This document shows positions 1,685-62,256 of a stretch of 64,000 nt of DNA, in pieces. Both the position numbers and the translations under genes were made by a program. The stretch is from a bacterium (GTDB lineage: Bacteria > Verrucomicrobiota > Kiritimatiellia > CAIKKV01 > CAITUY01), in NCBI GenBank assembly GCA_037128595.1, contig JBAXWB010000007.1, positions 96,588 through 160,587 on the forward strand, written 5' to 3'. The number at the start of each line of letters is the position of its first letter. The first letter of the stretch is position 1. Below the pieces are notes generated by a model, which saw only the letters and a list, made by a program, of their open reading frames with translations, searched no databases and was not told where the DNA came from.

Positions 1685-1699
1685 TCACGCGCACAATAG

Positions 1700-1797
1700 T
1701 TTGAACAGAAGTCACGAAGGTCATAAAGAAGATTTTTCTTAACCGCCTCCGGCGGAAAACGATTCCCCCTTCGTGGTCTTCGCGGCTTCTGTTCAAA
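1700..1797. terminator. long imperfect inverted repeat (12-bp outer stem TTTGAACAGAAG/CTTCTGTTCAAA, inner CGAAGG stems, central CCGCC-TCC-GGCGG hairpin) between convergent grpE and CDF genes; putative bidirectional terminator
   Basis: Read directly from sequence; no long T-run, so Rho-independent function is uncertain. Confidence 0.35.
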
Positions 1798-1818
1798 TTC
1801 TTTTCTGACCTGAATTCT

Positions 1819-2751: not shown

Positions 2752-2774
2752 TGATTAAGCAATTTATCCCGCCG

Positions 2775-3590: not shown

Positions 3591-3639
3591 TTCACAGGAT
3601 CATAACAGGCATCGCGCGACCCGTAAAGATGCACCATAC

Positions 3640-4437: not shown

Positions 4438-4487
4438 CCGCTAAAGTTAGCACATTTTATCAGTCTGTAGTGGGCAAAATTCTGACG

Positions 4488-5111
4488 TCAGAGGCGTGCA
4501 TTGCTCACCCACCCGTTCAACCATCCCGCAATAAACGCCCCCTGTTTCTCCCGTATGTGCTCATGGAAGTGGACATGATCACAGTAGAGGTCCGGGCCCA
4601 GATTGCGCGTGAACGTGTAAAGGTCCAGCAACGGGACTCCTGCCTGACTCATGACGCGATCCGCCACGGCATTGTAGGCGACCCCATCGGCAGAGAAGCG
4701 ATACATACTGATACCAGGGCTGTTATGCACGGCCTCATCGCAGGGAGTGGTGCGAATCCAGACCAGTTTGACTCGCAACTCACTGGCGACAACGACAATG
4801 GAACGGAGGTTCTGTTCGTAATCATCGAGCGCTACCTGGGGTTTATTGGTCTGGAGATCCCGCCTAATGTCATGGAGCCCGCAATTCACCAGAAGGAGAT
4901 CGGCCTCAAGCCCTCCCGTTCGCGCCAATCCTTTCAAATAGGCTAACACCATCGAGGAGTCGCCCCCGTTGGCGCCCTGGGGATTGTCCAGATTCAGCAA
5001 CGCCTCGGCGTCCCCCTCCTTTCGCGCGTACTCCACTACGCCAGTCAGATAGTTCTTCAAATAGGGGCCATAGTGGATAGATATACTGTCACCGATCACA
5101 TAAATTTTCAT
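4488..5111 (-). CDS. SGNH/GDSL family hydrolase
   Basis: MKIYVIGDSIS N-terminal GDS(L) block; C-terminal DHVHF block. Confidence 0.7.
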   Translation of the reverse strand: MKIYVIGDSISIHYGPYLKNYLTGVVEYARKEGDAEALLNLDNPQGANGGDSSMVLAYLKGLARTGGLEADLLLVNCGLHDIRRDLQTNKPQVALDDYEQNLRSIVVVASELRVKLVWIRTTPCDEAVHNSPGISMYRFSADGVAYNAVADRVMSQAGVPLLDLYTFTRNLGPDLYCDHVHFHEHIREKQGAFIAGWLNGWVSNARL

Positions 5112-5146
5112 CGGATGTTCCTTAACGGCTCTCTTTACAGGCCTGG

Positions 5147-6391
5147 TTAGAGTGTAGCCACATCCACCATCCGCCCCTCACGGCGTGATTTTTCAGCGGC
5201 AAACACAATGGAATGGGTTTTCAGCGATTCCTGCGCGTTGGCCACCAGACTCCGGTCATCGCGACTGTGCAGGGCCTGGAGCCATTCACGTACGACGCGT
5301 TCATCCCCGCCTCCATGCCCCCCGGCCTCCTCCCCGATGTCAATGCGGGTGACATTCTTGTCGGCAAAGGTCTTGATCGTGATGGACTGCTGGTCAAAAC
5401 TGATATCACCCAGGGTGCCGTGGATCCGAAGCCGCCGCCCATGATCCAATGCAAACGCCGTCATCGTGAATGTAACCGTGATGTTGCCTTCGAACAGCAT
5501 ATTGACCGTCTGGTGATCCACCACGTCATTGTCACATTTCCAGACGCAACGGCCATAAGGCCCCGTCCGGATGGCCGCCATGTGCGCCTCATACGAATGA
5601 TCGGGGCTGACCACATTGGCCGGCCAGTCCTGCCGGCGGCCATGGACATAGGCTTTGATCGCCGAGTAGGTGCAGGAAGGTTCCAGCGGACAGGCCTCCG
5701 TGCAGCGGTCAGCACTACCCGCCGGGGCTTTATCGCGCCGGAAATAATTCAGGGCACCAAAGGAGCTCACCTTGAGACACGGCCGGTTCACCAGATAGGA
5801 GATATAATCAATGTCATGACAACTCTTGGCCATCAGCATGAAGGTCGCCGGTGCCTCTTTTCCCCAGTTGCCACGCACGAAACTATGAGCCTGGTGCCAG
5901 TAGGTAACCTGCTCAATATGGTCAACCGTGACGAGTTCTCCGATGACGCCACTGGAAACCAGCTCCTTCACCTTGCGGAACCCCTTCTGGTACCTGAGGG
6001 AATGACAGACGGCAACGAGCCGGCCTGTCCGCCGCTGGGCCGCCTCGATGGCCCGACAATCCTCGATCGAGGTTGCCATGGGCTTCTCCAGCAGGACATC
6101 ATACCCGAGGTCCATGCAGGCCACCGCCGGTCCGACATGGTCCTGATCCATGGTGGCAATCACCACGGCGTCGGCCATGGCAGGCCGAGCCACAAACTCA
6201 TGCCAGTCCGAAAACACCTGATTGCGGGGAATATCATGAGTCTTTGCCAGCGCTTCGCGATAGGCCTCACGAGGCTCGGCCACCGCCGTCACCTTGCCCA
6301 GGTAAGAATACTGCTGGATGAGCGTGGCAAATCCCGTGCCACGGCCACCGGCTCCAAGAATGGCGATTGTCTTCAATTTTTTCGAGGTCAT
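5147..6391 (-). CDS. Gfo/Idh/MocA family NAD(P)-dependent oxidoreductase
   Basis: LKTIAILGAGGRGTGF Rossmann start; EKPMATS motif; 414 aa. Confidence 0.8.
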   Translation of the reverse strand: MTSKKLKTIAILGAGGRGTGFATLIQQYSYLGKVTAVAEPREAYREALAKTHDIPRNQVFSDWHEFVARPAMADAVVIATMDQDHVGPAVACMDLGYDVLLEKPMATSIEDCRAIEAAQRRTGRLVAVCHSLRYQKGFRKVKELVSSGVIGELVTVDHIEQVTYWHQAHSFVRGNWGKEAPATFMLMAKSCHDIDYISYLVNRPCLKVSSFGALNYFRRDKAPAGSADRCTEACPLEPSCTYSAIKAYVHGRRQDWPANVVSPDHSYEAHMAAIRTGPYGRCVWKCDNDVVDHQTVNMLFEGNITVTFTMTAFALDHGRRLRIHGTLGDISFDQQSITIKTFADKNVTRIDIGEEAGGHGGGDERVVREWLQALHSRDDRSLVANAQESLKTHSIVFAAEKSRREGRMVDVATL

Positions 6392-48986: not shown

Positions 48987-49616
48987 TCAAATCTTCGTGG
49001 ACACAGTGGACTTTGCTGACGGGGTTGACCAAGGACGTGGCGAACGTTTCTCGGAGCGGATCCGGTAGAGGCGTTCAGTGAAACCGCCTTCGGCCTCAAA
49101 AGCAGAGGCTTGAGATGCAATTTGGCGATCAAGCAAACTGCAGGCAACCGCCAGCAAAACCAGCGCCGCATTGGCCGCAAGTTCAGGATATGGGTTTTGT
49201 CCACTTGGTCCACCCAGTCCACTCCCCCGATTATCCCGCACCCAGACAGCCACATCATCCGCGGTCACGCAACGGCGATCAATCAGGTTTTGTCGGCGAG
49301 GATCCTCGCGCTTCCAGATCGGCATGCTTCTCTGGCGAAGGAAATCTTCGTAATCGAGGCGGAGTTCTTCCAAACTGGCACGGGCCACATTCGTAAGTTT
49401 CAGTTCGGTCTTTTTGGAAGTTCCCGAAGCCTGGCTCCCTTCGGCAATATTCTGGACCCCGGACCGCGCCGCCTGGACCATCTGGTCATGGGTACGACTT
49501 CGCCGGTCAATGAATCGGTCGCAAAAACGCACGGTGATATCGAAAGCCAATTGAGCGACCTGAAAGCTTTTGAGCTTCCGGTAGCCTCCATGCACAGGTA
49601 TGAGCGGCTCGGCCAT
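48987..49616 (-). CDS. four-helix-bundle protein (TIGR02436-like, 23S rRNA IVS protein family) with C-terminal extension
   Basis: GYRKLKSFQVAQLAFDITVRFCDRF ... AARSGVQNIAEG ... NVARASLEELRLDYEDFLRQ matches the family pattern (YRxL, NIAEG, SLxEL). Confidence 0.6.
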   Translation of the reverse strand: MAEPLIPVHGGYRKLKSFQVAQLAFDITVRFCDRFIDRRSRTHDQMVQAARSGVQNIAEGSQASGTSKKTELKLTNVARASLEELRLDYEDFLRQRSMPIWKREDPRRQNLIDRRCVTADDVAVWVRDNRGSGLGGPSGQNPYPELAANAALVLLAVACSLLDRQIASQASAFEAEGGFTERLYRIRSEKRSPRPWSTPSAKSTVSTKI

Positions 49617-49798
49617 TATTCATCAACTCCTGCTTATTAAGCAGGTAATATGACAGCACCAGCCGAGTTTCGTCTATCTGCGCCAGTAACGATTTTTCTA
49701 TCAGCGAATGTTGGAGCAGAGCGGTGTTGTTGCGGTATTGCAACTTACTCAGCTTCGTACTATTGTTTCAGAACATTACAGGGAGACAAACCTTCAGC

Positions 49799-50500
49799 AT
49801 GCCAGACAAACACACAGATATTCGCTACACGCCCCTTTACCGACTGCCCGAAGTAGCAATGTACACGCATGGCAACTTGAGCACGCTTCGCACATGGGTT
49901 ATGGGGCGTTCACACGCCACCAAAGATGGCCAAAAATACCAGCCAGTAATCAAGGTCGAACAACCTAACCGCGCGGATGCCTTAAGTTTTATCAACTTGA
50001 TCGAAAGTCACGTTCTGGTGGCATTGAGGAGGACTCATCAAGTTCCCCTGCCTAAAATCAGGGATGCCGTCCTTTGGCTCCAGCAGGAAACGGGTTCAGA
50101 ACATCCTCTGGCAGAACTCCAGATCGAGACAGACGGACTTAATGTTTTCTTTCGCCATTTAAATCAAATCATTAGTGCTTCCGAGAAAGGCCAAGTGGTA
50201 ATTCGGGATGTCATGGAGCGCTACCTGCGCCGGATCGAACGTGACGCCAAAGGCATTCCTATCAGTTTTTGCCCCTTCACCCTTTCGGATCCTTTGCGTG
50301 ATTCTCAAACCGATATCATCATGGATCCTGCCGTTGCATTCGGACGCCCAGTGATCCGGGGAACACGCATTGCAACCGCCACAATTTTGGAGCGCTATAA
50401 AGCGGGGGAAGGCCTGACTGACCTCTCAAAAGACTATGACTTGGAGATGAGACTCATTGAAGAAGCACTCCGCTGCGCAATCGACCAGCAAGCCGCCTGA
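49799..50500 (+). CDS. DUF433-domain (antitoxin-like) protein with long N-terminal extension
   Basis: C-terminal IIMDPAVAFGRPVIRGTRIATATILERYKAGEGLTDLSKDYDLEMRLIEEALR is the DUF433 fold. ATG 49799 with GGGAGA RBS preferred over GTG 49724. Confidence 0.6.
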   Translation: MPDKHTDIRYTPLYRLPEVAMYTHGNLSTLRTWVMGRSHATKDGQKYQPVIKVEQPNRADALSFINLIESHVLVALRRTHQVPLPKIRDAVLWLQQETGSEHPLAELQIETDGLNVFFRHLNQIISASEKGQVVIRDVMERYLRRIERDAKGIPISFCPFTLSDPLRDSQTDIIMDPAVAFGRPVIRGTRIATATILERYKAGEGLTDLSKDYDLEMRLIEEALRCAIDQQAA

Positions 50501-50888
50501 CGCTTTCCGACTGGTTCTTGACGAAACCTTGGCCGGAAAATCCATTCTGGAAGGACTGCAGCAACAAGGTATTCCTGCAATCCCCTTAACTGAATTCGTT
50601 CCCAGGGGAGCGACAGATGAAGCGGTGCTGGAAGCATTGGCGCAAAAGGGAGACCTGTACTTTATCACCCGCGACCATCATTTCCGGTATCATCCAGGGG
50701 TCAAAGAAAGACTTCTTGCAGGTGGAGTGGGTGCATTTGTCATCACATCAGCAGGGAATAAGACGGCCGCGCAAATAGTTGAGCTTTTGTTAGCAGCCTG
50801 GCCCCACATTAATAAATTTGTGAGTACCCACCAACGGCCCTTTGCAGCCAAGGTAGCCGCATCCGGGAAAATCGAGTTACACTCGTAA
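50457..50888 (+). CDS. DUF5615-family (Mut7-C / PIN-like) putative toxin; start uncertain (TTG)
   Basis: FRLVLDETLAGKS ... GDLYFITRDHHFRY resembles the DUF5615 N-terminal LxDENL and D-rich core; partners with the DUF433 protein. Confidence 0.5.
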   Translation: MKKHSAAQSTSKPPDAFRLVLDETLAGKSILEGLQQQGIPAIPLTEFVPRGATDEAVLEALAQKGDLYFITRDHHFRYHPGVKERLLAGGVGAFVITSAGNKTAAQIVELLLAAWPHINKFVSTHQRPFAAKVAASGKIELHS

Positions 50889-50945
50889 CAGTCCCGTTAC
50901 GCATTGCAGAATGTCGCTTCCACCAGGTTGAGATAATCTAGTCCG

Positions 50946-52058
50946 CTAAATTCCGCGTTTGTCTTCAATTAACTTGAAGTAATTCATCAGCGCCTTCGGC
51001 CGGTATTTCGGATCGCCATCCCACCGCGACAAGACACTGGCATGCAAAGACTGGGTTGGATCAATTGAGGGGGCCGTTTTACGCGATTCGGCAGGGCCTG
51101 AAGGCTGGCCGATGGCACGATCTATACCGAAGGTGGGCCAATAGACGCCGGTTTTGGAGTTATGCAGTTTGGCGAGAGGATCAGGATGGATCAAATGGGT
51201 TTGAATTACACCTTCATCAAAGACCAATCCGGCTCCGCGTGCCTTCTCAATCATCCATCCCAGGGCAATATCCGAATGTCCACATTCCGAGGCCGGATAC
51301 CCGCCGCCGATATCACTATGCGCACCACAAAACCAGACTTGTTCAACTGTCTGCCCCGGTTTCGGCACATAGTCCCATATTGACGGGGCGAATGGGGCGC
51401 GATGCTCATCAATGGCTAGGGCGTGGTAAGCAGATTCAACCGTCTTACTTAATTCCGTGTCGTGGAACTGAAAATCATGCCGGGTAAGATACCGCAATCC
51501 CCGTAACGGTATACCAAGCGCACCCACCGTATCCCAAACCCCAATAAACTTAATGGGAATATTTTCGGCACCACAAATGGAAAAGTCCGTCCTGAATTTA
51601 AGCGGCTGCTCATCGTCGGGATGGACGTCCATCTTCCTGTACAAATCAATTGCGTCCCGGTAATGCTGAACAAATTCACGCTTGAGAATGCCACATTTGC
51701 GAATCATCCCGGCAATACTGCGAGCGGTAAAGGCCCCGCGACTAAACCCAAACAGAAAAATCTCATCCCCAGGCTCATAATTGGCCACCAGAAACCGATA
51801 GGCATCATGAATATTGGCCTCCAACCCTTCGCCAAAAGCCCCACCTGTCGCCCTATCGACCGAATTCCCCGTCCCAACCCCCTGATCGTAATAGATGATC
51901 TGAGGAATATCGCCATCCCGCTTGGCCACTCGATAGGCAATTTTTACGACATTAGAGGGGCAAGGAACGCCATTATCATCTTCCTGGTCGGGCTTATTCC
52001 AGGTGCCGTCACAACAAAGAATGAGTCTTTTCACTTTTACCCCATAATTCTGATTCAC
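50946..52058 (-). CDS. DUF2235 alpha/beta-hydrolase (T6SS Tle1-type phospholipase fold), last gene of the four-gene system
   Basis: LILCCDGTWN N-terminal block and GFSRGA nucleophile elbow (GxSxG) are hallmarks of DUF2235/Tle1; GTG start, 22 nt after the ATPase gene. Confidence 0.7.
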   Translation of the reverse strand: MNQNYGVKVKRLILCCDGTWNKPDQEDDNGVPCPSNVVKIAYRVAKRDGDIPQIIYYDQGVGTGNSVDRATGGAFGEGLEANIHDAYRFLVANYEPGDEIFLFGFSRGAFTARSIAGMIRKCGILKREFVQHYRDAIDLYRKMDVHPDDEQPLKFRTDFSICGAENIPIKFIGVWDTVGALGIPLRGLRYLTRHDFQFHDTELSKTVESAYHALAIDEHRAPFAPSIWDYVPKPGQTVEQVWFCGAHSDIGGGYPASECGHSDIALGWMIEKARGAGLVFDEGVIQTHLIHPDPLAKLHNSKTGVYWPTFGIDRAIGQPSGPAESRKTAPSIDPTQSLHASVLSRWDGDPKYRPKALMNYFKLIEDKRGI

Positions 52059-52080
52059 TGCCTACATGCCCTTGCACCCC

Positions 52081-53802
52081 CTAGAAACGACGGCCGAATA
52101 GTCCGCCATCTTCCTTTGCATCGGTCAGGACGACAGGTAAAACATGTTCTCGTAGGTCAAACCCATCCGTCTTCTCTTTGTAAGCATCATCTTCGTTCAT
52201 TGTGACAATATATTGGAATCTAAGCTCCCGAGCAGTTTCCGCCCCCACCTTCAACGCACTGACAACTTGTCGTCCATCCACCCCATCAAAAAGGTGGCTG
52301 TCATGCACCAAAAAACCGGGGCCAATCCCACGCTTCGCACAAAGGCGCATAAGCATCATATCAAAACAGAATATCTGCATGTTCTTTATACCCCTACTAC
52401 GCGCGCCCTGCATGGGAAATTGAAAAACGGGCCCGTTGGAGGTTTCCTCGATAGTCATACTGCCGGCTGACTCATAAAGGCGTTTTGACGTCTCTTCGAA
52501 AGCGAGAATTGCCTCTGCCAAACGACCCTTTTGTTCTGAAAAATCCCGACGCAGGCGTATTGCTAGGTGATTTCGTTCAATTTCAAGCTCGTTTTTGGTG
52601 CCTTCCAACTGCTCGGCAGACTCAAAGCGTTGGCGTAACGATGCCACCTCCGATTCAAGACGGCCTGCTTCACCTTGCAGTTTTGCAAACTGCTCCAAAG
52701 CCCCGTGACTATCCAACACGCTCATAACTTCGGCTCGACGCTGATCGAGGCGTCGCTTCTCCACGCCTCGGGAGGCCATTCGCTCTTTGGCTGCGCCTAA
52801 TTCCCCTGATAGGTAATCGCGTCGGTTACGGATTATCGACTCATGGAAACATCGTACTTCCTCGTAGCGTTTGACAGTTAGTCCCGGCAAGGCGACCCCC
52901 GCTTCAGCATAAATACTTTCAATCTCGATCTGTGATGGCGGCGCCTCTCCTTTCATAGCACTCTCAAGGTCATGGATTGCCGCAGTGTCTATGATGTTGA
53001 CGTTGGATATGGTCTTAATTTGTTTCGTAATCTGATCCGCTTCTGCTTCAAGTAGTTCATATTGTGGCAACACGCGAAAGGCAGTAATTTGAGACTGCAA
53101 ATCGATCAGTCGAGATTCAGCAACTGTCAGTTGCGTTCGAAGGTCGGCAGCCTTGCCAATGATGCTCCCGAAGGCGCCAGCTCCGGCGGCCTTCTTAAGT
53201 GCGGCAAGCGTTTTTTCTCGGTCGCGCACTTTCTGCCAGTCGCTCGCGATTTTCCAATCTAGACCAAGCAAAAACAACAGAGCCACCTGATAGTCTCCGG
53301 CCTGTTGCATGGCAGCCTGCTTCTCAGGTGTCATGAATGCCCCGCTATGTTGACGCCGGACGAAGTATGCAAAAAGTGATCTAAAGGTTGGGACGCGTCC
53401 CTCCATTTCGGATATAGCCTTCAATCCGAACATCTTTTCCCCAAGCGCCTGAACCCACTCAGAATTGGACAGGCTTGTTTTCCCATTTAGAAAAGCACCG
53501 CCCTCAACAAAAATTTTTGATTTCTCCTTTCCACAGCGCTTCACCGCTGCTCGATCTACACCAAGATCGAGATCAATGCCGAACATTTCACCGGCAACCG
53601 CTTCCCCTCGGAAAAGTGAATCTTTCCCAGCCTCAGAACCCGTGAGAAAATGAATAATCTCAATCAAGCTTGTTTTACCTGCCCGGTTCCGGGTTTGCTT
53701 TTCGGTTGCACCCGACTCCTTCTGAGCAATCAAGACATTTAGTCCATGGGTGAATTCAAGATTCTTAAAAGTTGTGAGGCTGCTAGAAATGCTATGAATC
53801 AT
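52081..53802 (-). CDS. ABC/SMC-like ATPase with central coiled-coil insertion (ABC-three-component-type ATPase candidate)
   Basis: Walker A NRAGKTSLIEIIHFLTG near the N-terminus; about 250 aa of heptad-rich coiled coil (LEAEADQITKQIK...LESEVASLRQRFESAEQLEGTKNELEIERNHL); C-terminal Walker-B/D-loop-like GFLVHDSHLFDGVD. ATGA overlap with the upstream 81-aa gene. Confidence 0.6.
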   Translation of the reverse strand: MIHSISSSLTTFKNLEFTHGLNVLIAQKESGATEKQTRNRAGKTSLIEIIHFLTGSEAGKDSLFRGEAVAGEMFGIDLDLGVDRAAVKRCGKEKSKIFVEGGAFLNGKTSLSNSEWVQALGEKMFGLKAISEMEGRVPTFRSLFAYFVRRQHSGAFMTPEKQAAMQQAGDYQVALLFLLGLDWKIASDWQKVRDREKTLAALKKAAGAGAFGSIIGKAADLRTQLTVAESRLIDLQSQITAFRVLPQYELLEAEADQITKQIKTISNVNIIDTAAIHDLESAMKGEAPPSQIEIESIYAEAGVALPGLTVKRYEEVRCFHESIIRNRRDYLSGELGAAKERMASRGVEKRRLDQRRAEVMSVLDSHGALEQFAKLQGEAGRLESEVASLRQRFESAEQLEGTKNELEIERNHLAIRLRRDFSEQKGRLAEAILAFEETSKRLYESAGSMTIEETSNGPVFQFPMQGARSRGIKNMQIFCFDMMLMRLCAKRGIGPGFLVHDSHLFDGVDGRQVVSALKVGAETARELRFQYIVTMNEDDAYKEKTDGFDLREHVLPVVLTDAKEDGGLFGRRF

Positions 53803-54044
53803 GGTGTTCTCCGGGATAAAAGCCCATTTTGAAGGTCAATTGCACCAATGAGAAAAAGAAGGTCAAGAGCAAGAACAAAGCTGTCATAGCGCAAGGGTGG
53901 CACAATATTCCGCCCGATGTCCCTTCGCGGCAATTCTTCCCATAATGCGGACATCGTTTTCGGCTGTGGCAAGTGATGCAAGATCCGAGCCCCTATCGAG
54001 AGAAGCGCGCGGTCTTGAGAAAGATGTTTCGATGGCAGGATCAT
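53799..54044 (-). CDS. small alpha-helical protein (81 aa); candidate middle component
   Basis: ATGA overlaps on both sides (coupled to the 301-aa gene and to the ATPase). No motif recognised; size, position and predicted helicity fit ABC-3C middle components. Confidence 0.45.
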   Translation of the reverse strand: MILPSKHLSQDRALLSIGARILHHLPQPKTMSALWEELPRRDIGRNIVPPLRYDSFVLALDLLFLIGAIDLQNGLLSRRTP

Positions 54045-54946
54045 AACTCAAGAGTTTTAGGTTCTTCAAAAATATCACACCTCTCAAAATAATAAGCAAT
54101 CACCGTCAAGACTGCCAGTTCATGCTCTGGCGTGCCGCGGTGGCCACCTCCAGCCCATGATTGTAGCTCAAAAAAAACCTCATTTGGGCTAAATTTAGTC
54201 CGGAGTTCTTGATATTTGGCCTTGAATGATTCAGCGATGCGCTCCCCTAACGTTTCGTCATGCCACTTGCTGAAGAAAGTTTCGACTAACAATGCCTTGG
54301 TGATACCAACCTTCAATAAATCGGTGACGCTTATAGACAATGCATTAGCTTCGATCTTCCCCATGGGCACTTCCCTCACCGCAAGTGCTGTCAGCACTGG
54401 TCGTTTTGCGATGGTTTCTAACACAACTTGTAAATCTTTAAAACCCAAATGAGTCTTGGTCTCTTCTGAAGGAACAGGTCCAAACCAAGACTGGAGGTCG
54501 TCGTGTGACAATCTACGAAATACGAGGCGAAATTCCTCTAAACCCCATGTTTCCAGCGTAATACCTGAATTGGCTACTTCAAAGTCGAGCACAAACTTTT
54601 GAACATGCGGAGGAATTCCCCCAGTTGCGTTGTGCGCGAAAACCCATTTATCAAAATGTTTACCCCAGTAGGCTTTGGCCCCCTCAAAATCCTCGGTAAT
54701 TTTCGAAATTGCCTTGGATGCCTCCATCTCGTTTGGCGCATATACTTGAAATAATCTTCTTTCTGATTTCAGAAAACCATCGTTCTTACGGTCTCCCTGA
54801 TTCCCCCATGGCCGACAAGCCATAAAATCAGCCTTGTAAGCCAAGCCCATCAATCTTTCGAAAAGTGACTGAAATTCGTTACCCTTCGCCCGGAGAAAGG
54901 CAATCTCGAAACCTTGCTCATAAAATGCTTTTTGTAGGCGGTCCAT
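54041..54946 (-). CDS. hypothetical 301-aa protein; candidate effector/C-terminal-domain component (possible degenerate Mrr-like nuclease N-domain)
   Basis: Starts 3 nt after the hsdMS stop. N-terminal FMACRPWGNQGDRKNDGFLKSERRLFQVYAP loosely resembles Mrr-cat (GDxGxDG...QxK); the C-terminal half is helical. Confidence 0.45.
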   Translation of the reverse strand: MDRLQKAFYEQGFEIAFLRAKGNEFQSLFERLMGLAYKADFMACRPWGNQGDRKNDGFLKSERRLFQVYAPNEMEASKAISKITEDFEGAKAYWGKHFDKWVFAHNATGGIPPHVQKFVLDFEVANSGITLETWGLEEFRLVFRRLSHDDLQSWFGPVPSEETKTHLGFKDLQVVLETIAKRPVLTALAVREVPMGKIEANALSISVTDLLKVGITKALLVETFFSKWHDETLGERIAESFKAKYQELRTKFSPNEVFFELQSWAGGGHRGTPEHELAVLTVIAYYFERCDIFEEPKTLEL

Positions 54947-54949
54947 GTT

Positions 54950-57481
54950 TTAACCCTCCGTGTTTGCTATTTCTTCTCCCCACACCCGCCCCAACGTCGT
55001 CTGGATCTTCTTCTCAAATCGGACGATCAGTTCGCGGTTCGCCGCTACCAGCGCTTGCTCGGCTTCGATCTCCGCAATGATCGCTTTCTGCGTGGCGAGG
55101 GGCGGGAGGGGAATTTGAACGGAAGACAGAATGCCTTGGTTTAAGTTCTTCATTGTGACGCCAATGGCTTGTTCTTCGAGATATGCCCTAACCTTTTGAG
55201 ATGCAATTTGGAAGAAAGCGAATCGAGGGAGGCACTTGCTTTTTAAACGAATGACAAAACTCCCAGTACCGCAAAGCCAGCCAGCCATGTCCGCAGAGAC
55301 CACTGCACACCTTCCCATTTCACCTCGCCTACCGATAACAATGTCATTCCCCTGGACAGTGAATTCTTTTAGGCGGTCTCTGGTGGCAGCGGACACCATC
55401 TTTACACCATCAGTGCTTATAGCTCCATCGACTATGTTTTGCGGATTGATGACAGGTATTCCATCCGCGACGTAATCACTTTGGTGTAGAGCAGTTCCGA
55501 ATGGACCGGTCATTATGGCCTCACACACCTCCCCCAACTCCACCATCGGCCACCCGGGGTCAATAGTGATGTGGGGGCAGTAGTTATCGAGGACGGCGCG
55601 GGCACCATCGATGACTTTCTGGTAACCCTCGATCTCTGTCACGATCTCCTTCTGTATCTCTAATGGCGGAAGGGGGATTTGAATCGACCTCAAGATCGGC
55701 ATATTTAAACCGCTTCGTTCATTGTCTCCCGTTAATGCCCGAATTTCTGCATACATCGAGCGAAGCACCCAAAAGACAAACTCTACGACTGCTCGGGGTG
55801 GTTGCGCCGGGGTAATAGCAACGAGAGATTGGTTACAAGTAGCACCTTCCATACGCAGCAATGCAACTGTCCCGCGCGTTTTCCCCTGCCCATTAAGCGC
55901 GATTAAAACACTGTCCTTTGGTAAGATTCGGGCATTCGAGTTCTCCACTGCCTTCCGGGTAATGCGCTTCTCGCAATCCCAAATCTCAAACCCATGAATA
56001 TCACCCGATACCAACCATGGAACGGACCCATTCTCGTAATATTCCGCGAGGGTTGAGGTTGGTGTTCCCCCAGTCATAAAAGTGCATATTTCTCCAAGTG
56101 AAACGGTTGGCCATTTTCCCTGAAGCATCCGTGTTTGCTCGCTATACCGCTCTCCACTGAGGTTGTAGTCGCCATTGGCGCCTATCTTTTCTTTTGGAAC
56201 GATGAGTCCCGTGGTGATGGCTATGCTCTCGACTCGCTGCTTGGCTCGGATTGCTTGAAGGTAGGACTCCAATTCACCCTGCACTTGCGGAAGGTCATTT
56301 TTATTGAAGGCGCGGCGCTGAGCCCCGAGGCCGAAACCGTCGTTTTCAACTTTGAAAAAGGCGATGGTCTGGCATTGCCGGGCCAGGGATTTGTCGAGAA
56401 TGAGAATACTGGTCTTCACTCCTGAGTAGGGATTGAAACAGCCCGCTGGCAGGGAGATGACGGCGACCAGGCTGGTATCCACCAGCATCTTGCGTAGTTC
56501 TTTGTAGGCGGTCTGGCTCTGGAAGATGATTCCCTCTGGCACAATGATGGCGGCGCGGCCGGTAGGCGTAAGATGCTCGGCCATGTAATCCACAAACAGG
56601 ACTTCACTGCGCTTGGCCTGGATGGAGAAGCGCTTATGGGGCTTGATCCCGCCTTTGGGTGACATGAAGGGCGGGTTGGCCAGAATGACATCGGAAAAAT
56701 CGTTCCAGCGCTCTTCGGAGGTAAGGGTGTCGTATTCGTAAATGTGGGGATCGGTAAAGCCATGAAGATAAAGGTTCACCAGGGAGAGGCGTACCATGTC
56801 GGGCGAGATGTCATAGCCCTTGAAATTCTTGGCGAGGCGCCCTTTGTCGTCAGGCGTCAATTTGCTGTGGCCCTTGGCGTCGGTGTTGTTGCGAAGAATA
56901 TGCTTATAGGCAGAGATGAGGAAACCGGCGGTACCGCAGGCGGGATCAAGGATGCTCTCGCTTTTCTTCGGCGCGAGCACCTCTACCATGAAGTCGATGA
57001 TATGGCGTGGAGTCCGGAACTGCCCAGCATCGCCCTGACTGCCCAACACGGAAAGCAGATACTCAAAGGCGTCGCCCAGCTTTTCGCTATGGTCATAGCT
57101 GAACTCGTTAACGATCTTGAGGAAAGACTTGAGCGTCTCGGGGTCACGGTACGGGAGATAGGCGTTTTTGAAGATATCGCGAAAGAGCGGCGGGATGCCG
57201 GGATTCTCCGGCATCCTGGAAATGCCTTCACCGTAGAGGCCAAGCATCTCGTGCCCACCAAGTGAGGGCGCCATGAGTTTGGCCCAGCCGTAGCGGGCGA
57301 ACTCCTTGGTGAAAAACTTGCGCTTTCCCCCAAGCTCCTCGGATTCGGCATCCATGTCATCCATGAATTTATAGATCAGCGCAATGGTGATCTGCTCAAC
57401 CTGGGATTTGGGATCAGGCACTTTGCCAACAAGAATGTCACGAGCGGAGTCGATGCGGCGTTTGGTGTCAGTATCTAGCAT
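54950..57481 (-). CDS. hsdM: type I restriction-modification methyltransferase and specificity subunits fused in one ORF (HsdM-HsdS)
   Basis: N-terminal HsdM N-domain; QFRTPRHIIDFMVEVL; DPACGTAGFLISAY (motif I); ILANPPF (motif IV); IVPKEKIGANGDYNLSGERY HsdM C-terminus. This continues without a stop into two TRDs (KWPTVSLGEICTFMTGGTPTST and GWPMVELGEVCEAIMTGPFGT) with the conserved LPPLEIQKEIV and LPPLATQKAIIAEIE HsdS coiled-coil repeats. Start at ATG 57481 (MLDTDTKRRID). Confidence 0.8.
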   Translation of the reverse strand: MLDTDTKRRIDSARDILVGKVPDPKSQVEQITIALIYKFMDDMDAESEELGGKRKFFTKEFARYGWAKLMAPSLGGHEMLGLYGEGISRMPENPGIPPLFRDIFKNAYLPYRDPETLKSFLKIVNEFSYDHSEKLGDAFEYLLSVLGSQGDAGQFRTPRHIIDFMVEVLAPKKSESILDPACGTAGFLISAYKHILRNNTDAKGHSKLTPDDKGRLAKNFKGYDISPDMVRLSLVNLYLHGFTDPHIYEYDTLTSEERWNDFSDVILANPPFMSPKGGIKPHKRFSIQAKRSEVLFVDYMAEHLTPTGRAAIIVPEGIIFQSQTAYKELRKMLVDTSLVAVISLPAGCFNPYSGVKTSILILDKSLARQCQTIAFFKVENDGFGLGAQRRAFNKNDLPQVQGELESYLQAIRAKQRVESIAITTGLIVPKEKIGANGDYNLSGERYSEQTRMLQGKWPTVSLGEICTFMTGGTPTSTLAEYYENGSVPWLVSGDIHGFEIWDCEKRITRKAVENSNARILPKDSVLIALNGQGKTRGTVALLRMEGATCNQSLVAITPAQPPRAVVEFVFWVLRSMYAEIRALTGDNERSGLNMPILRSIQIPLPPLEIQKEIVTEIEGYQKVIDGARAVLDNYCPHITIDPGWPMVELGEVCEAIMTGPFGTALHQSDYVADGIPVINPQNIVDGAISTDGVKMVSAATRDRLKEFTVQGNDIVIGRRGEMGRCAVVSADMAGWLCGTGSFVIRLKSKCLPRFAFFQIASQKVRAYLEEQAIGVTMKNLNQGILSSVQIPLPPLATQKAIIAEIEAEQALVAANRELIVRFEKKIQTTLGRVWGEEIANTEG

Positions 57482-57484
57482 TTT

Positions 57485-57511
57485 GGATTTCTGATTGAGG
57501 ATTTCTGATTG
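57485..57511. repeat. tandem GGATTTCTGATTG x2 between the four-helix-bundle gene and hsdM
   Basis: Inverted relative to 57902-57928 ((T/C)AATCAGAAATCC, CATTCAGAAATCA); together they bracket the four-helix-bundle gene. Confidence 0.7.
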
Positions 57512-57531
57512 TATGGCACGTATTGTGAAAA

Positions 57532-57894
57532 TTATTGATTGTTTTGTTTGGCGGTACGGCCAGATGCGACAAATATAGCGGTGAGTTCCCCGGCTTCTTG
57601 ATGTAGTTGCGCAACCTTCCCTGCGGGAAGAAGCCCACCTTCCATAATTAATTCCATCCAAAGGGAACTTTCATCGGCTTCCTCGGCAACGACGCCAATC
57701 TTGGCGACAAACTCTGCTTTAGAACGGCTTCGGCATGAGGCACGATAATTGGCACCTACAGAGGTACCACTGCGCACAAGTTGATTTCCGATGGCTCGAC
57801 CTGCAGTGGTTTTCGGCAACGCATCGACGAGTTTCAGCACTCTCAATGCAAAAACCTTCGTCCGTTGCTTCAGTTCTGCCTCGTTCATGAGCAT
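57532..57894 (-). CDS. four-helix-bundle protein (TIGR02436, 23S rRNA intervening-sequence protein family)
   Basis: 120 aa; LKQRTKVFALRVLKLVDALPKTTAGRAIGNQLVRSGTSVGANYRASCRSRSKAEFVAKIGVVAEEADESSLWMELI is the textbook family pattern. Inserted between hsdR and hsdM. Confidence 0.8.
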   Translation of the reverse strand: MLMNEAELKQRTKVFALRVLKLVDALPKTTAGRAIGNQLVRSGTSVGANYRASCRSRSKAEFVAKIGVVAEEADESSLWMELIMEGGLLPAGKVAQLHQEAGELTAIFVASGRTAKQNNQ

Positions 57895-57901
57895 TTTCTC
57901 C

Positions 57902-57928
57902 TAATCAGAAATCCGCATTCAGAAATCA
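57902..57928. repeat. TAATCAGAAATCC / CATTCAGAAATCA, inverted partner of 57485-57511
   Basis: Lies between the hsdR stop and the four-helix-bundle start. Confidence 0.7.
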
Positions 57929-57937
57929 AAAATCACT

Positions 57938-60472
57938 TTAAGCCGCAAATTGGTTCAGTGACACGTAGTCTTTAATATATTCCGGGATCAGTGTCCGGTA
58001 TTTCGCGGGAACGGCCTTGAAGTCTTTTGTTGAGAAAGCAGGATTCGTGGCAAGATCGGCGTATTCTTTTTCGTCAATGATGTGGCGGACACGGCCGTCG
58101 GTGATGTAGGCCTTGAAGTAAGTTTTAATTGCCGGGATGGCCTCGGCTTCTTCGGGCTTGGTGTCGGCCACAAATTTGGCGAATTCCTCCTCCAGCAACT
58201 CGTCCTTGGATTTGAAACTGGGAATGAGACCGAAGATTTTCTCCAGGATCTCCCGCAAGGTGAGGCGCCGGTCCACTGCGGCCGCTTTGCGCAGTTTGTC
58301 CAGGGTGTAATATTCCCGGGGTTTGTCAAAAACCTCGCGGTTGACATAGTCAATGACTCGGTCCCACTGACCCGCCTCAATGGCGGCGGCAATGGTCTTG
58401 TTATCGCGTACGGCATCCTCGAATTTCTCAAAGAACATCCGGTCGATTTTCATCCCCTCATAGCCAATGGTCGCCTCCTTGACCGAGGCGATGATGTCCG
58501 CACCTTTATGATCATAAATACCACCAGGTGGGGGCGGTGGGTTGGGCCCCTCCCCACCTTTACCTTTCGGCTTGGGTAACTTCAGCACCTCGTCATACTT
58601 GAACTCCTGTTCGAAGTATTCGCAGTTGGCAAAAAAATCGAAAAGTTTATAGGCGCTCTTCTGGGGCTTTGTCACCCCCTCCTTGATGGCCGGATCAAAG
58701 ACCTGTTCCAGAAAGTTGTGCTTACGGGTGCCGCGTCCCTTGATCTGAATGAAATCAGTAGGCGAGAAAATGGGACGGAACAGTCCGAGGTTCAGGATAT
58801 CCGGACAATCATAACCGGTGGTCATCATGCCCACAGTCACACAGACCCGGGCCTTACTGGTCTTGTAGGCCGGAATGAAGTTGGCGGAACCCAGCAATTT
58901 GTTGTTGGTGAAGTTGATGGTGTGCTGCTGGGCTCCATCCACCTGAGAGGTCACCTGCACGGCAAAATCCGACTGGTATTTGCCGGGGAACATGCGGTCG
59001 GCCATCTGGTTCAGGATTTGCGTCAATTTGGCCGCATGGTTCTGGCTGACCGCAAAGATAATCGACTTGCCAATCTCACCGCTGACAGGATCACGAAGAG
59101 CATTTTCGATGAACGTCTTGCAAAACAACTGATTGGTGGAATCGGCAAAAAACCGCTTTTCAAACTCGCGCTGTTTATAGGCCTCCTCCTGGTCTTCCCC
59201 GGCATCATCCTTAAAGGTAACGACAAATCCCTCTTCGGAAAGAAGTTCGGTGGTGATTTCGGTGCGGGCATCCACCACCGTGGGATTAATCAAATACCCC
59301 TCCTTGACGCCATCAAGCAGGGAGTAGCGGTAAGTGGGCTGGCTGTTTTCGCACCCGAAAGTGCGGTACGTATCCAACAACAGTCGGCGCTCGGCTTCAC
59401 GCGGGTCACGCGTGGAGGCCTTGGCATGATCAAACCGCTTGAGGTAGTCACGGGGGGTGGCCGTCAACCCCAGTTTATACCCGATAAAATAATCAAACAC
59501 CGCGCGGGCATTGCCGCCAATGGAGCGGTGAGCTTCGTCAGAGATCACCAGGTCGAAATCCGTCGGCGAGAAAAGCTTCTGATATTTGTTATTGAACAAC
59601 AGGGACTGCACAGTGGTCACTACAATTTCCGCATGACGCCAGTCGTCCCGGTTTTCCTTGTAAATGACGGTCTTGAAGTCGGCCGAAAGCTGGGCATCGA
59701 ATGCTTTCTGGGCCTGGGTTTCCAACTCAAGACGGTCCACCAGAAACAGCACACGCCGGGCGTTGCCGGACCGCAAGAATAACTTGATCACCGCAGCGGC
59801 CGTCAAGGTCTTGCCGGTCCCCGTGGCCATCTCGAAAAGAAACCGGTCCTTCCCTTCTTTTACGGCCCGCTGTAAGGCATGGATGGCGTTCAACTGGTAA
59901 GGACGCAGAAAGCGGAGTTTATTGACCTGGATATAGCCGGGCCGCTCGGCTTCATTTTTCCAGGCCGCCTCGGATTGGTAGTTGGGGCACTGGGTCAGGA
60001 CGATATAGTCCGCACCGACCTGATCCTCGCCCAGTTGTTCCGGATTGGGCTTAACCTGCTGGTAGCCGGCAACGGAATCCGGCGTAGGGAAAGATGTGAT
60101 GAGGCAGGGATTTCCGCGTTCGAGATCCCAGAAATAATGCAGATTGCCATTGGAGAGGATGACAAAGCGGCAGTTTTGCGACTTCGCATACTTACGCGCC
60201 TGTTCTTTGCCGACCAGCGGGTCCTTGTTTTCGGCCTTGGCCTCCAGCACGAGGAAAGGGAAGCCTTTGGCATTGAGCAGGAGAAAGTCGATGAACCCTT
60301 TCCCGGCCTTCTCGAAGTTATTACCCAACGCATCAAGGTCATGCGCCTTAAGCACCACGCTGGGTTCAAGCTGAATGTTGGCGGGGCCGGCGTCGTCTGC
60401 AAAGAAACGCCAGCCGGCGGCTTCGAGCAGTTTATTGATCTTGATACGGGCGGTTGCTTCTTTATCAGCCAT
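57938..60472 (-). CDS. hsdR: type I restriction endonuclease subunit R (HsdR)
   Basis: 844 aa; N-terminal nuclease region; DEAD-box helicase motifs (EMATGTGKT Walker A, DEAH-like VISDEAHRS, TATP); C-terminal HsdR domain. Confidence 0.9.
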   Translation of the reverse strand: MADKEATARIKINKLLEAAGWRFFADDAGPANIQLEPSVVLKAHDLDALGNNFEKAGKGFIDFLLLNAKGFPFLVLEAKAENKDPLVGKEQARKYAKSQNCRFVILSNGNLHYFWDLERGNPCLITSFPTPDSVAGYQQVKPNPEQLGEDQVGADYIVLTQCPNYQSEAAWKNEAERPGYIQVNKLRFLRPYQLNAIHALQRAVKEGKDRFLFEMATGTGKTLTAAAVIKLFLRSGNARRVLFLVDRLELETQAQKAFDAQLSADFKTVIYKENRDDWRHAEIVVTTVQSLLFNNKYQKLFSPTDFDLVISDEAHRSIGGNARAVFDYFIGYKLGLTATPRDYLKRFDHAKASTRDPREAERRLLLDTYRTFGCENSQPTYRYSLLDGVKEGYLINPTVVDARTEITTELLSEEGFVVTFKDDAGEDQEEAYKQREFEKRFFADSTNQLFCKTFIENALRDPVSGEIGKSIIFAVSQNHAAKLTQILNQMADRMFPGKYQSDFAVQVTSQVDGAQQHTINFTNNKLLGSANFIPAYKTSKARVCVTVGMMTTGYDCPDILNLGLFRPIFSPTDFIQIKGRGTRKHNFLEQVFDPAIKEGVTKPQKSAYKLFDFFANCEYFEQEFKYDEVLKLPKPKGKGGEGPNPPPPPGGIYDHKGADIIASVKEATIGYEGMKIDRMFFEKFEDAVRDNKTIAAAIEAGQWDRVIDYVNREVFDKPREYYTLDKLRKAAAVDRRLTLREILEKIFGLIPSFKSKDELLEEEFAKFVADTKPEEAEAIPAIKTYFKAYITDGRVRHIIDEKEYADLATNPAFSTKDFKAVPAKYRTLIPEYIKDYVSLNQFAA

Positions 60473-60704
60473 TCGTTTCCCTATTCCACAGATATGTTTT
60501 CGAGAGTGTCAAAAGGCCACCGGGAAGGCAAGAGCGATGACTTCACCGGTCCGGTTATTTCTTTTCGAGCACCGCCAGGACCCGGTCCAGTTTCGCATTC
60601 AACTGCTTCACCTCGACACTGTTCTTATAGGCCATGGCCACCACTTTAACGGATATCAGAAAGACACCCGCCTCCAGGAACAGGTCGTGAGTCATTCCTT
60701 TGAC

Positions 60705-60795
60705 AAAAAAAAAGGATTCAGAACCCAGAATCCAGGAAGTGATCTCACTCCCCATTCTGACTCCTGAATCCTGACTTCTGGATTCTGTCTTTTTT
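60705..60795. terminator. bidirectional Rho-independent terminator (A9 - nested GGATTCAG / CTGAATCC and CAGAATCCAG / CTGGATTCTG hairpins - T6) downstream of the cyclophilin gene
   Basis: Read directly; the minus-strand transcript of the PPIase gene meets a hairpin followed by a U9 run. Confidence 0.55.
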
Positions 60796-61372
60796 ATTTC
60801 CGCTTCACGGACTTGATCATGACCGCAGTGGCGGGGACATCGCCCATGCCATTCTTGTTGGTCGTCTTGACGGCGGCGATCTTATCCACCACGTCCATAC
60901 CGGCCGTCACCTTGGCGAACACCGCATATCCGAAATCACGGCTGCCGTTATTGAGGAAGTCGTTATTGGCCACATTGATGAAGAACTGCGAGGTCGCGCT
61001 GTCCACCACCGCCGTGCGGGCCATGGCCAGGGTGCCGCGATCATTCTTGAGCCCGTTCTTAGCCTCATTCTTGATCGGCGCCTTGGTGCTCTTCTGGCTC
61101 ATATTGGCTTCGAAACCGCCACCCTGGATCATGAAATTGGGGATCACGCGGTGAAAGACCGTGTTGTCATAAAAGGCCGCATCCACATAGGCCAGGAAAT
61201 TACTGACCGACACCGGGGCCTTGTCCGCAAACAGTTCGATCTCGATATCGCCCTCGGACGTCGCCATCACCACCACTGTATTCGCTGTCACATTCGTCGT
61301 CATATTTGTCTCTCCTGCACTCACGGACCCCGCGAGCAGCATTGTTGTTAACGCCATCATTGATAGTTTCAT
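60794..61372 (-). CDS. peptidyl-prolyl cis-trans isomerase, cyclophilin type (secreted)
   Basis: Signal peptide; [15 protein letters not shown] ... cyclophilin core. Confidence 0.9.
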
Positions 61373-61467
61373 AACTGACTCCTTAACCTAAACGCCGCTT
61401 ATGGTATTACAGCCTGCGCTGCCGGTCAATATCGCCGCATTGCCAGCCCGATTCCTTTATTGCTATA

Positions 61468-62256
61468 GTGCATTCCATGACACCTCTTGAACTCATCCGC
61501 ACGAAAACCGGTTTTATCTGCGACATGGACGGCGTGGTCTACCACGGAAACCAGCTCCTGCCCGGAGTCGTGGAATTTGTGAACTGGCTCAAGGCCGAAC
61601 AAAAGAAATTCCTCTTCCTGACCAACAGCAGCGAGCGGTCCCCGCGCGAGTTGTGCCACAAACTCAAACGACTCGGCCTTGACGTCAGTGAAGACCATTT
61701 TTACACCAGCGCCCTGGCCACCGCCGCCTTCCTGGCCAGCCAGCATCCCGGCGGCAGCGTCTATGTCATCGGCGAAGGCGGCCTGAACAATGCCCTCTAT
61801 GACGCCGGACTCACCAATAATGACATCAACCCGGACTATGTCGTGGTCGGCGAATCGCATGACTATACCTATGAGCGCATCTGCCGGGCAGTCAAACTGG
61901 TCCTCAAGGGCGCCAAGCTGATTGGCACCAACCCCGACCTGACAGGCCCGGTCGAAGGCGGACTGGTGCCCGCCACCGGCGCCCTGATGGCGCCCATAGA
62001 ACTGGCCACCGGCAGCAAGGCGTACTATGTGGGCAAGCCCAATCCGCTGATCATGCGCAACGCCCTCAAGAAACTCGGTTGCCGCCGGGAGGAGTCGGTG
62101 ATCATCGGCGACCGGATGGACACGGACATCATCGCCGGCGTGGAGTCTGAAATTGACACCATCCTGGTCCTGACCGGGGTCAGCACGGAGGCGGATTTAA
62201 AGCATTTCGCCTATCGTCCGCACCATGTGATCAAAGACCTGCAGACACTTTTATAA
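61468..62256 (+). CDS. HAD-IIA family hydrolase (NagD-like sugar-phosphatase)
   Basis: FICDMDGVVY (DxDG motif I), LTNSS, GKP, IGDRMDTD motifs. Confidence 0.85.
   Translation: MHSMTPLELIRTKTGFICDMDGVVYHGNQLLPGVVEFVNWLKAEQKKFLFLTNSSERSPRELCHKLKRLGLDVSEDHFYTSALATAAFLASQHPGGSVYVIGEGGLNNALYDAGLTNNDINPDYVVVGESHDYTYERICRAVKLVLKGAKLIGTNPDLTGPVEGGLVPATGALMAPIELATGSKAYYVGKPNPLIMRNALKKLGCRREESVIIGDRMDTDIIAGVESEIDTILVLTGVSTEADLKHFAYRPHHVIKDLQTLL

Follow-up and report, generated by a model that had tools for sequence, protein, structure and literature searches.

Why does a gene of the family first seen in intervening sequences (IVSs) of 23S rRNA lie between the restriction and modification genes of an operon, inside a frame of inverted repeats? 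The question is raised by a 64,000-nt stretch of bacterial DNA (Kiritimatiellia; assembly GCA_037128595.1, contig JBAXWB010000007.1, positions 96,588 to 160,587), referred to below as the window. Its type I-like restriction-modification (R-M) operon consists of an hsdR-like gene, a short four-helix-bundle gene and a fused hsdM-hsdS gene, all on the minus strand. We estimate at roughly 0.6 the probability that the feature at the junction is an IVS-type gene-in-a-hairpin cassette lying outside rRNA, that is, a four-helix-bundle open reading frame (ORF) with its own Shine-Dalgarno (SD) sequence inside inverted arrays of 7-nt units.

A short gene between inverted heptamer arrays

The whole cassette occupies 57480-57933 (minus strand, 454 bp) at the hsdR/hsdM junction and is made up, in order, of an array, the SD sequence, the ORF and the inverted array. 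Its two arms, 57480-57510 and 57903-57933, are 31 nt long, complementary at 28/31 positions (90%) and separated by 392 nt. The ungapped score of this inverted repeat was 22, compared with 10.9 ± 1.9 in 300 first-order Markov resamples (maximum 24). The original prediction, made from the sequence of the window, had described a frame resembling terminal inverted repeats, and such a frame is present. It had also described the repeats as inverted tandem 13-mers. Their positions and orientation are borne out: GGATTTCTGATTG occurs exactly at 57485-57497 and 57499-57511 on the plus strand, and its reverse complement at 57902-57914 (one mismatch) and 57916-57928 (two mismatches). The unit, however, is not a 13-mer but a heptamer, KGATTKN, set out in pairs as 14-nt double units. 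Each arm contains four GATT cores at 7-nt spacing, Tandem Repeats Finder gives a period of 14 for the exact pair, and in doubled form the array sequence is (GGAUUUCUGAUUG)2.

The 5' arm (57903-57933, minus strand) reads ATTTTTGATTTCTGAATGCGGATTTCTGATT on the operon strand, holds about 4.5 GATT-core heptamers and starts 4 nt past the hsdR stop codon. The 3' arm (57480-57510, plus strand) contains the two exact GGATTTCTGATTG copies at 14-nt spacing, which are AATC units on the operon strand, and abuts the hsdM start codon. Read along the operon strand from 57511 to 57485, this array appears as two exact copies of CAATCAGAAATCC, again spaced by 14 nt, after a short non-repetitive stretch past the ORF. 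A degenerate third copy, TGAAAATTATTGATTGT (57526-57542, plus strand, 76% identity), overlaps the ORF stop codon; it is probably an eroded older part of the 3' array, and the array of relatives begins at this position.

Runs of at least three GATT/AATC cores at 7-nt spacing occur exactly twice in the 64 kb, both times at this gene, while shuffles gave a mean of 0.04. The only other matches to GGATTTCTGATTG in the window with two or fewer mismatches are at 10936 and 63114, which is chance level (2.4 expected per 64 kb). When a 501-nt region was folded as RNA, the minimum-free-energy and centroid structures both closed a long-range stem around the ORF. A search of 57300-58100 against Rfam at a permissive threshold gave no rRNA, only two sub-threshold snoRNA chance matches. 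Since scans of 57200-58200 for sigma-70 promoters and intrinsic terminators found none, the arrays contain no obvious promoter or terminator.

The ORF (57532-57888, minus strand) encodes 118 aa. The 120 aa given earlier correspond to the frame 57532-57894 with a start at 57894; the likely start, as read from the sequence, is the ATG at 57888, 9 nt past a Shine-Dalgarno-like AGGAG (57898-57902, minus strand) that lies 3 nt before the ATG at 57894. The stop codon, TAA, is 50 nt ahead of the hsdM ATG. This is atypical, as most relatives read on through the 3' array. We also observed an 8-nt direct repeat, AGCATTTT, at 57477-57484 and 57890-57897; on the operon strand it is AAAATGCT, found just ahead of the four-helix-bundle ATG and at the hsdM ATG, and a similar AAAATGC lies upstream of the corresponding gene at one related locus, L026 (loci of the comparison set are given by L numbers). 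The repeat could be chance (about 1e-2) or the trace of a duplicated hsdM start.

The product scores above the cut-offs of both PF05635 (50.6 bits, cut-off 33.8) and TIGR02436 (75.6 bits, cut-off 24), in agreement with the original assignment of a TIGR02436-type gene between hsdR and hsdM. An AlphaFold2 model (pLDDT, the predicted local distance difference test score, 96.2) has helices at residues 3-23, 28-52, 57-83 and 89-115. Foldseek matched it to 2RLD (BT_0352; template modelling score, TM, 0.80-0.90) and 2GSC (Xcc0516; TM 0.76-0.83), and phmmer gave E = 8.7e-14 against 2RLD. Both structures were deposited with five chains, and Xcc0516 is described as a homopentamer (PMC4990558). Against Avd (4DWL, 8UB7) TM was 0.71-0.82 with a structure-based sequence identity of 8-9%. 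The family motif is GxxRxxxSxxxNxxE (PMC3936711); in the window protein (R-SGT-S-VGA-N) the RxxxSxxxN part is present, the final E is replaced by A (NYRA) and the leading G is displaced, and the same holds across its subfamily. Members of the family have been reported within cas operons (PMC3936711) and in 16S and 23S rRNA insertions of bacteria of the candidate phyla radiation (CPR; PMC11270868).

The window protein has thousands of homologues, the best 120 being 70-82% identical to it. Other hsdR-x-hsdMS operons carry GATT arrays upstream and AATC arrays downstream of the gene (the L016, L026, L029 and L110 groups). The same frame is found at L118, between brxC/pglY of a bacteriophage exclusion (BREX) system and a DUF1016 nuclease gene, and at L120, where pglX and the next ORF flank the cassette. 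Gene and arrays therefore occur as one unit in unrelated contexts, and the recurrence of the repeats around such genes, on which the earlier idea of a cassette depended, extends to distant relatives with other units. Among the C-terminal tails of the best 120 homologues, 66 of the 99 that could be read end in ...N(P/Q)KC or QC, which is the AATC array translated. The TAG stop of these tails overlaps the hsdM ATG in AAAATGCTAG, and tail lengths are 13, 20, 26-28 and 49 aa. Thus, as read from these codons, translation of hsdM-S is coupled to the cassette ORF in most relatives and appears loosened in the window by the early TAA. In the subfamily of the window gene, the unit varies at every position except the GATT core and the K after it. 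Three loci from one sample show that the arrays slip: between L026 on the one hand and L027 and L028 on the other there is a difference of a single GGATTGT unit. In these three loci an ORF-less hairpin at 3890-3990 (a GATT array, a 17-nt loop, an AATC array and AAAATGC) lies between hsdR and the four-helix-bundle gene, and resembles a second cassette from which the ORF has been lost.

More distant loci were collected from viral contigs with a hand-made degenerate DNA pattern for AAxSIxSNIAEG, and from isolate plasmids with tblastn; automatic peptide patterns for the viral contigs were poor choices and gave 2 and 5 loci only. In all, about 22 short four-helix-bundle genes, independent of one another and drawn from many phyla, from phage-like contigs and from isolate plasmids, were examined. 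Each has a heptamer array on at least one side, and about 19 of the 22 or so have inverted arrays on both. Unit sequences (upstream/downstream) vary by locus: AGTAGGG/CCTACTC (L124), GTTGGCT/CAACAGC (L132), GTAGTCT/AGACTAC (L134), ATAGGGT/CTATCCC (L135), AACGTTG on both sides (L127/L133), GGAACTA/TAGTTCC (L126), AGTGGTT/AACCACT (L136), AGTGGGA/TCCCACT (L120a), AGGGTGT/CTACACC (L144, Calothrix), AAAGGGA/CTTTTCC (L143, Geminocystis) and GGTTTAA/TAAACCT (L142, Riemerella). The two arms of each locus nevertheless match one another. Since duplex energies between long flanks (RNAduplex) were too noisy to assess covariation of the arms, ungapped complementarity was scored instead; over 15 loci, cognate arms averaged 15.9 and non-cognate arms 8.1, and 0/20000 permutations reached the cognate value. 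Over 18 loci, the density of arrays of period 7, 14 or 21 within 150 nt of the gene ends is 27 times that in the rest of the same loci. Arms have about 4-6 units and stems are 22-46 nt (one 89 nt), and the elements span 412-602 bp in 19 other cassettes. What is conserved is thus the complementarity of the arms and the 7-nt period, while the unit sequence is free. These inverted arrays around the whole short TIGR02436 family appear to be undescribed: no paper linking the genes to heptamer arrays was found in the open-access literature, which is weak evidence of absence.

Two loci of Nostoc sp. PCC 7120 (L139 and L140, on plasmids alpha and gamma) have only a right array (CTCTGCC). The left array is gone because an ISL3 element abuts that side. 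Both loci encode the same protein, WP_010994075.1, with an ISL3-family transposase gene abutting its upstream side in each, and the ISL3 element and the cassette seem to have moved together.

Three cassettes lie within coding genes, two of them in BREX-1 pglX (L120, 1296-1870 of IMGVR_UViG_3300025408_000073, and L136, 560-1050) and one in a DnaE-type polymerase gene (L126, 1000-1760). The PglX insertions are at the same profile position, about 1010-1019 (771.7 bits for L120), and that in the polymerase is between its NTPase and finger domains. In 3/3 the frame of the host gene, offset by +2 from that of the four-helix-bundle gene, is free of stops across the cassette and would encode an insertion of roughly 125-190 aa; in 12 other family genes the corresponding frame has 1-8 stops. 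The open host frame points to selection for continuity of the host protein.

Arrays without the gene were also seen. At L118 (GCA_003194495.1, PQXE01000002.1) ORF-less heptamer hairpins (GGTTxxx/AACCxxx) lie in frame within brxC/pglY at 2120-2206 and 2513-2581, with the unit type of the arrays around the four-helix-bundle gene 2 kb downstream. ORF-less arrays likewise share the unit of the local cassette on the same contig at L127 (AACGTTG, ten arrays over 11.8 kb), L132 (GCTGTTA/AGCCAAC, 3427-3504) and L134 (AGACTNC, 2741-2770 and 6091-6191). Sharing of units on one contig resembles an autonomous/non-autonomous relationship, or the mark of a genome-specific trans-acting factor. Fifteen other species, from at least seven phyla, have the exact 25-nt pattern of the window arrays, as part of heptamer arrays between genes and several times as adjacent inverted pairs. 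These matches bear in part on the earlier caution that the repeats might be generic elements akin to repetitive extragenic palindromic (REP) sequences: in 14/15 species with the exact GGATTTCTGATTG pattern there is no four-helix-bundle gene within the 2.5-8 kb fetched around the match, and L011 alone adjoins one, while in the window the arrays occur only at the gene. Inverted heptamer arrays with several types of unit (GTCCAAA/CTTTGGA, CGTATTG/TACGCAA) abound in the intergenic DNA of the L001-L015 genomes, for example at L009 (Chloracidobacterium, 1366-5942), L002 (Marinoscillum, 5318-6231) and L004 (Anaerolineales, 1334-1410 and 2535-2610), and such arrays give rise to spurious ORFs ('LRISDCGF', 'IRNPQSAIRN').

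A second, longer member of the family had been noted in the window at 48987-49616 (minus strand), and it is indeed there, with TIGR02436 and TIGR04258 suffix domains. Inside this ORF the suffix domain is flanked by inverted arrays with a 9-nt period (GTGGACnnn, then GTCCACnnn), especially at 49195-49225 and 48995-49020, and the homologues at L051, L085 and L088 have matching low-complexity stretches (SGQ.., STKSTPST). This is the same theme of a module between inverted arrays, with a period that keeps the reading frame.

The hsdR/hsdM junction with and without the cassette

The upstream gene of the operon (57938-60472, minus strand, 844 aa) encodes an hsdR-like restriction subunit with Pfam matches to ResIII (131 bits), SWI2_SNF2, DEAD, HSDR_N_2 and HSDR_N; its top NCBIfam match, the EcoAI/FtnUII-family R subunit, is under that model's cut-off. 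The downstream gene (54950-57481, minus strand, 843 aa) is a fusion of hsdM and hsdS, with N6_Mtase (169.8 bits) and two Methylase_S stretches. Its ATG (57479-57481) directly follows the 3' array and has no SD sequence.

Orthologous operons were collected by scanning metagenomes with the first 300 residues of hsdM, which gave the 80 closest loci at 82-95% aa identity. None of the 80 carries a short four-helix-bundle gene or GATT/AATC arrays, so that the empty sites expected of an insertion do exist. Both flanking genes could be seen in 73 loci, and in 52 of these a gap of 2-28 nt separates the hsdR stop codon from the hsdM start. A typical empty junction reads TAA-AGGAG-ACCCC-ATG-CTC-GAC, the spacer being 12-13 nt (TAAAGGAGACCCCATG), and most empty-site orthologues have AGGAG or an SD-like variant (AGGA, GGGA) ahead of hsdM. 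The nearest hsdM relatives of the window (93-95% aa identity) are all empty, and operons with a cassette are spread over four or more separate positions of a distance tree of hsdM. Judged by comparison with these orthologues, the cassette was inserted at the hsdR/hsdM-S junction and replaced the native 12-13-nt SD spacer, and hsdM-S was thereby left without an SD sequence.

In 15/73 loci the same junction holds 0.67-1.2 kb of other genes (L038, L042, L051, L052, L056, L060, L062, L064, L068, L069, L073, L081, L085, L088 and L091). These encode a KilA-N protein (about 275 aa), a long four-helix-bundle-plus-suffix protein (about 220 aa), a DUF3800 protein and a 383-aa unknown protein, and there are also nested KilA-N remnants. 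Because alternative small genes are found there, the hsdR/hsdM junction of this R-M family is a variable slot. The original proposal of a mobile or insertion cassette is thus upheld for insertion, by the empty sites and by the recurrence of the unit; mobility we infer, as neither a target-site duplication nor a recombinase was found at the cassette. The alternative offered with that proposal, that the repeats are operators coordinating hsdR and hsdM expression, was rejected. It is unsupported because the repeats travel with the gene into unrelated BREX operons and are absent from orthologous R-M operons that lack the gene.

The operon in the window has the setting of a defence island. Directly downstream of hsdM-S (50946-54946, minus strand) are an ABC-3C system (a CTD10 protein, 54041-54946; MC6, 53799-54044; a CTD10 and DUF2326 protein, 52081-53802; all on the minus strand) and a Tle1-like lipase (50946-52058, minus strand). 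Beyond these lie a DUF433/HTH gene, a LacI-type regulator and a Fic/DOC protein.

Parallels with rRNA intervening sequences and other elements

The closest parallel is with the ORF-bearing IVSs of 23S rRNA in Leptospira, Coxiella burnetii, Brucella and Azospirillum, which likewise have an S23p-family protein encoded in the loop. The original link to the 23S IVS family is strengthened by L141, on AZO_p2 of Azospirillum lipoferum 4B. This is a 23S rRNA gene (Rfam LSU_rRNA_bacteria, 2140 bits) in whose helix-45 region a four-helix-bundle ORF is framed by CAGAGGA-CGGATGA... and CCGTCCT-CTGTCTT... arrays, and the predicted fold pairs the arms into a closing stem (z = -9.25). The Coxiella IVS is 428-444 nt long, with a 28-bp terminal stem around the S23p ORF that RNase III cuts in the middle (PMC4990558). 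The window cassette is of similar size, 454 bp compared with 428-444 nt in Coxiella and about 469 bp at L141, and lies within the range of about 0.4-0.75 kb for IVSs with an S23p-family ORF in the loop. All three are closed by a terminal inverted repeat of about 28-36 bp, and at L141 the arms are heptamer arrays as well. The host differs: the window cassette is at the junction of a protein-coding operon, flanked by hsdR and hsdM-S, whereas IVSs are at the tips of rRNA helices (23S helices 9, 25 and 45; 16S). Also, Coxiella S23p is reported to be probably untranslated, whereas the cassette ORF has a good SD sequence and in relatives is coupled to the downstream gene.

The arrays themselves resemble heptanucleotide repeats, namely the cyanobacterial short tandemly repeated repetitive (STRR) sequences and the TAACTGA direct repeats of Beggiatoaceae, Cyanobacteria and Bacteroidetes; a part in translational control has been suggested for heptamers that immediately precede start codons (PMC4679880). 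Both are tandem 7-nt units in 2-6 copies or more, are intergenic, often stand right before start codons and are scattered over phyla. The known repeats are direct, with no associated gene described, whereas the cassette arrays are inverted and enclose one gene family. Among plasmid matches for the gene, Nostoc, Calothrix and Anabaena predominate, and we take these to be the STRR taxa.

Miniature inverted-repeat transposable elements (MITEs), Rickettsia palindromic elements and REP/REPIN sequences share with the cassettes their short length, their inverted-repeat boundaries, ORF-less hairpins and copies tolerated in ORFs with the frame left open (as in brxC at L118). Unlike MITEs and REPs, the cassettes have arms of tandem heptamers that differ between genomes and no target-site duplication was seen; we know of no transposase, or REP-associated tyrosine transposase (RAYT), partner for them. 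The four-helix-bundle fold is shared with Avd of diversity-generating retroelements (DGRs), a pentameric protein that binds structured RNA next to its own gene. A Pfam scan of the main ORFs from 48987 to 61860 (R-M, ABC-3C, Tle1-like lipase, cyclophilin) found no reverse transcriptase; template and variable repeats were not searched for. Integron cassettes are also promoterless small ORFs in an expressed array, and attC is a folded imperfect palindrome of variable sequence and kept structure. They differ in that attC is one-sided and 57-141 bp long, whereas here the palindrome spans the whole ORF, and IntI, attI and the R/L core sites are lacking; no integrase was present among the Pfam-scanned neighbours, and no formal attC search was made.

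A possible mechanism, its rivals and what the cassettes mean

If the feature is an IVS-type cassette, its arrays would pair, as folding predicts, to give a stem of about 31 bp with the ORF in its loop, either in the transcript of the operon or in single-stranded DNA. By analogy with rRNA the stem may be a substrate for RNase III, the cassette RNA being cut from the host transcript, and such removal would explain why the element is tolerated in rRNA, at operon junctions and even in ORFs. The arrays would change by 7-nt slippage, and what keeps the arms matched would be selection for pairing or else template switching at quasi-palindromes, which is a known source of mutation. The GATT core at 7-nt spacing may be a recognition element, possibly for a pentameric four-helix-bundle protein. 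That the protein binds its own arrays is a reasonable idea by analogy, because relatives of the fold are pentameric, Avd binds RNA, the GATT cores have a 7-nt spacing and the arms have 4-6 units.

A wider reading is put forward tentatively, as the less probable outcome. Short TIGR02436 genes and their inverted heptamer arrays would together form a pan-bacterial, undescribed class of cassette, of which rRNA IVSs are a special case and ORF-less hairpins, including at least part of the STRR/heptamer repeats, are non-autonomous derivatives. An Avd-like pentamer would recognise the 7-nt units and maintain or spread them, and the cassettes would fit junctions and even essential ORFs with the host frame left open.

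Several observations weigh against an IVS-type cassette. Cleavage by RNase III at the window cassette is pure analogy with rRNA IVSs. The folding energy of the whole 501-nt region is unexceptional (z = -1.73), and wobble-compatible mismatches are without strand bias, with 25 on the sense and 21 on the antisense strand, so that nothing shows pairing to have been selected at the RNA level. Because the GATT consensus is common to all arrays of the window's subfamily, cognate arms are only marginally better matched there, and cognate specificity is weak except in the window and at L029. There is no target-site duplication; the flanks are AAAGTG and GCTAGA, and AGCATTTT does not bracket the inverted repeats. 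No transposase or recombinase was found, the four-helix-bundle gene being the only ORF of the cassette and none being adjacent. The 64 kb hold a single cassette and no further copy of the repeat, and since two other samples carry identical copies of the cassette, there is no polymorphism to be seen. Homologous exchange between related operons, rather than transposition, could account for the scatter of the cassette over the hsdM tree. Finally, in about two thirds of close relatives the stop codon overlaps the hsdM start, which suggests that the gene is integrated into operon expression, and it may be useful to the host rather than selfish.

The last point leads to the weightiest rival, which we nevertheless consider unlikely: a domesticated accessory gene of defence operons, in which hypermutable heptamers set the frame and length of the tail and so tune the coupling to hsdM-S (phase or dose variation). 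The translated AATC tails with TAG over the hsdM ATG (66/99), their varying lengths, the one-unit difference between strains and the absence of an SD sequence of its own from hsdM in the window all fit this, as do family genes in cas operons (PMC3936711) and the translational control proposed for heptamers before start codons (PMC4679880). Tuning leaves unexplained, however, why the downstream array is invariably matched by its inverted complement upstream and why the same frame occurs in 23S rRNA, inside ORFs and antisense between phage genes (L132, L135), and the closest orthologous operons manage without the gene. Next in weight, and similarly improbable, the arrays would be protein-binding iterons at 7-nt spacing for the four-helix-bundle pentamer or a partner, serving autoregulation or, by analogy with Avd and DGR RNA, assembly of a ribonucleoprotein (RNP), with inversion as a by-product of two-sided binding. 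Constancy of the GATT core and following K alone is consistent with this, and about 4-6 units per arm would suit the five-chain structures 2RLD and 2GSC and the homopentamer Xcc0516 (PMC4990558). The match of the fold to Avd in the DGR RNP (8UB7) and the unit that ORF-less arrays share with the local cassette on one contig point the same way. Yet the correspondence between gene subfamily and unit type would follow just as well if the cassette had descended as a whole from a common ancestor, and the exact GGATTTCTGATTG arrays of the 14/15 other-species loci have no such gene in the 2.5-8 kb fetched.

The remaining two alternatives were rejected. Inverted repeats flanking a short segment in a type I R-M operon might suggest an inversion switch, the 31-bp repeats flipping the 392-bp segment as in phase-variable type I systems. 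This is very improbable given the constant orientation of the gene: all R-M-embedded copies seen are in operon orientation, at six independent loci where both flanks could be read (window, L016, L026, L029, L110 and L118a) and as the 66 tails require, there is no adjacent recombinase gene, and the cassette is identical in three samples. Least probable of all is that the repeats are chance or a generic low-complexity feature unrelated to the gene. Heptamer arrays are indeed a common and unexplained class in many genomes (PMC4679880), but the reading is contradicted by the two arrays in 64 kb, both at the gene ends (0.04 in shuffles), by the 27-fold enrichment and by the arm-matching permutation (0/20000).

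Three puzzles have stayed unconnected for roughly thirty years: the origin of rRNA IVSs, the role of the abundant TIGR02436/S23p proteins, and the commonness of tandem heptamers in cyanobacteria, Bacteroidota and other phyla. The locus and the comparison set join them by one testable architecture, an ORF in inverted heptamer arrays of free sequence with kept complementarity and 7-nt period. In annotation, the unusual extensions with which many of these proteins are entered in databases, at the N as well as the C terminus, are explained by the arrays, which may also cause spurious ORF calls of the kind seen here. For defence biology, the hsdR/hsdM junction of this R-M family accepts alternative small genes and, with four-helix-bundle cassettes found in BREX and, in the literature, cas operons, their effect on the expression of those systems merits measurement. 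The family-wide inverted heptamer pattern is worth a systematic census.

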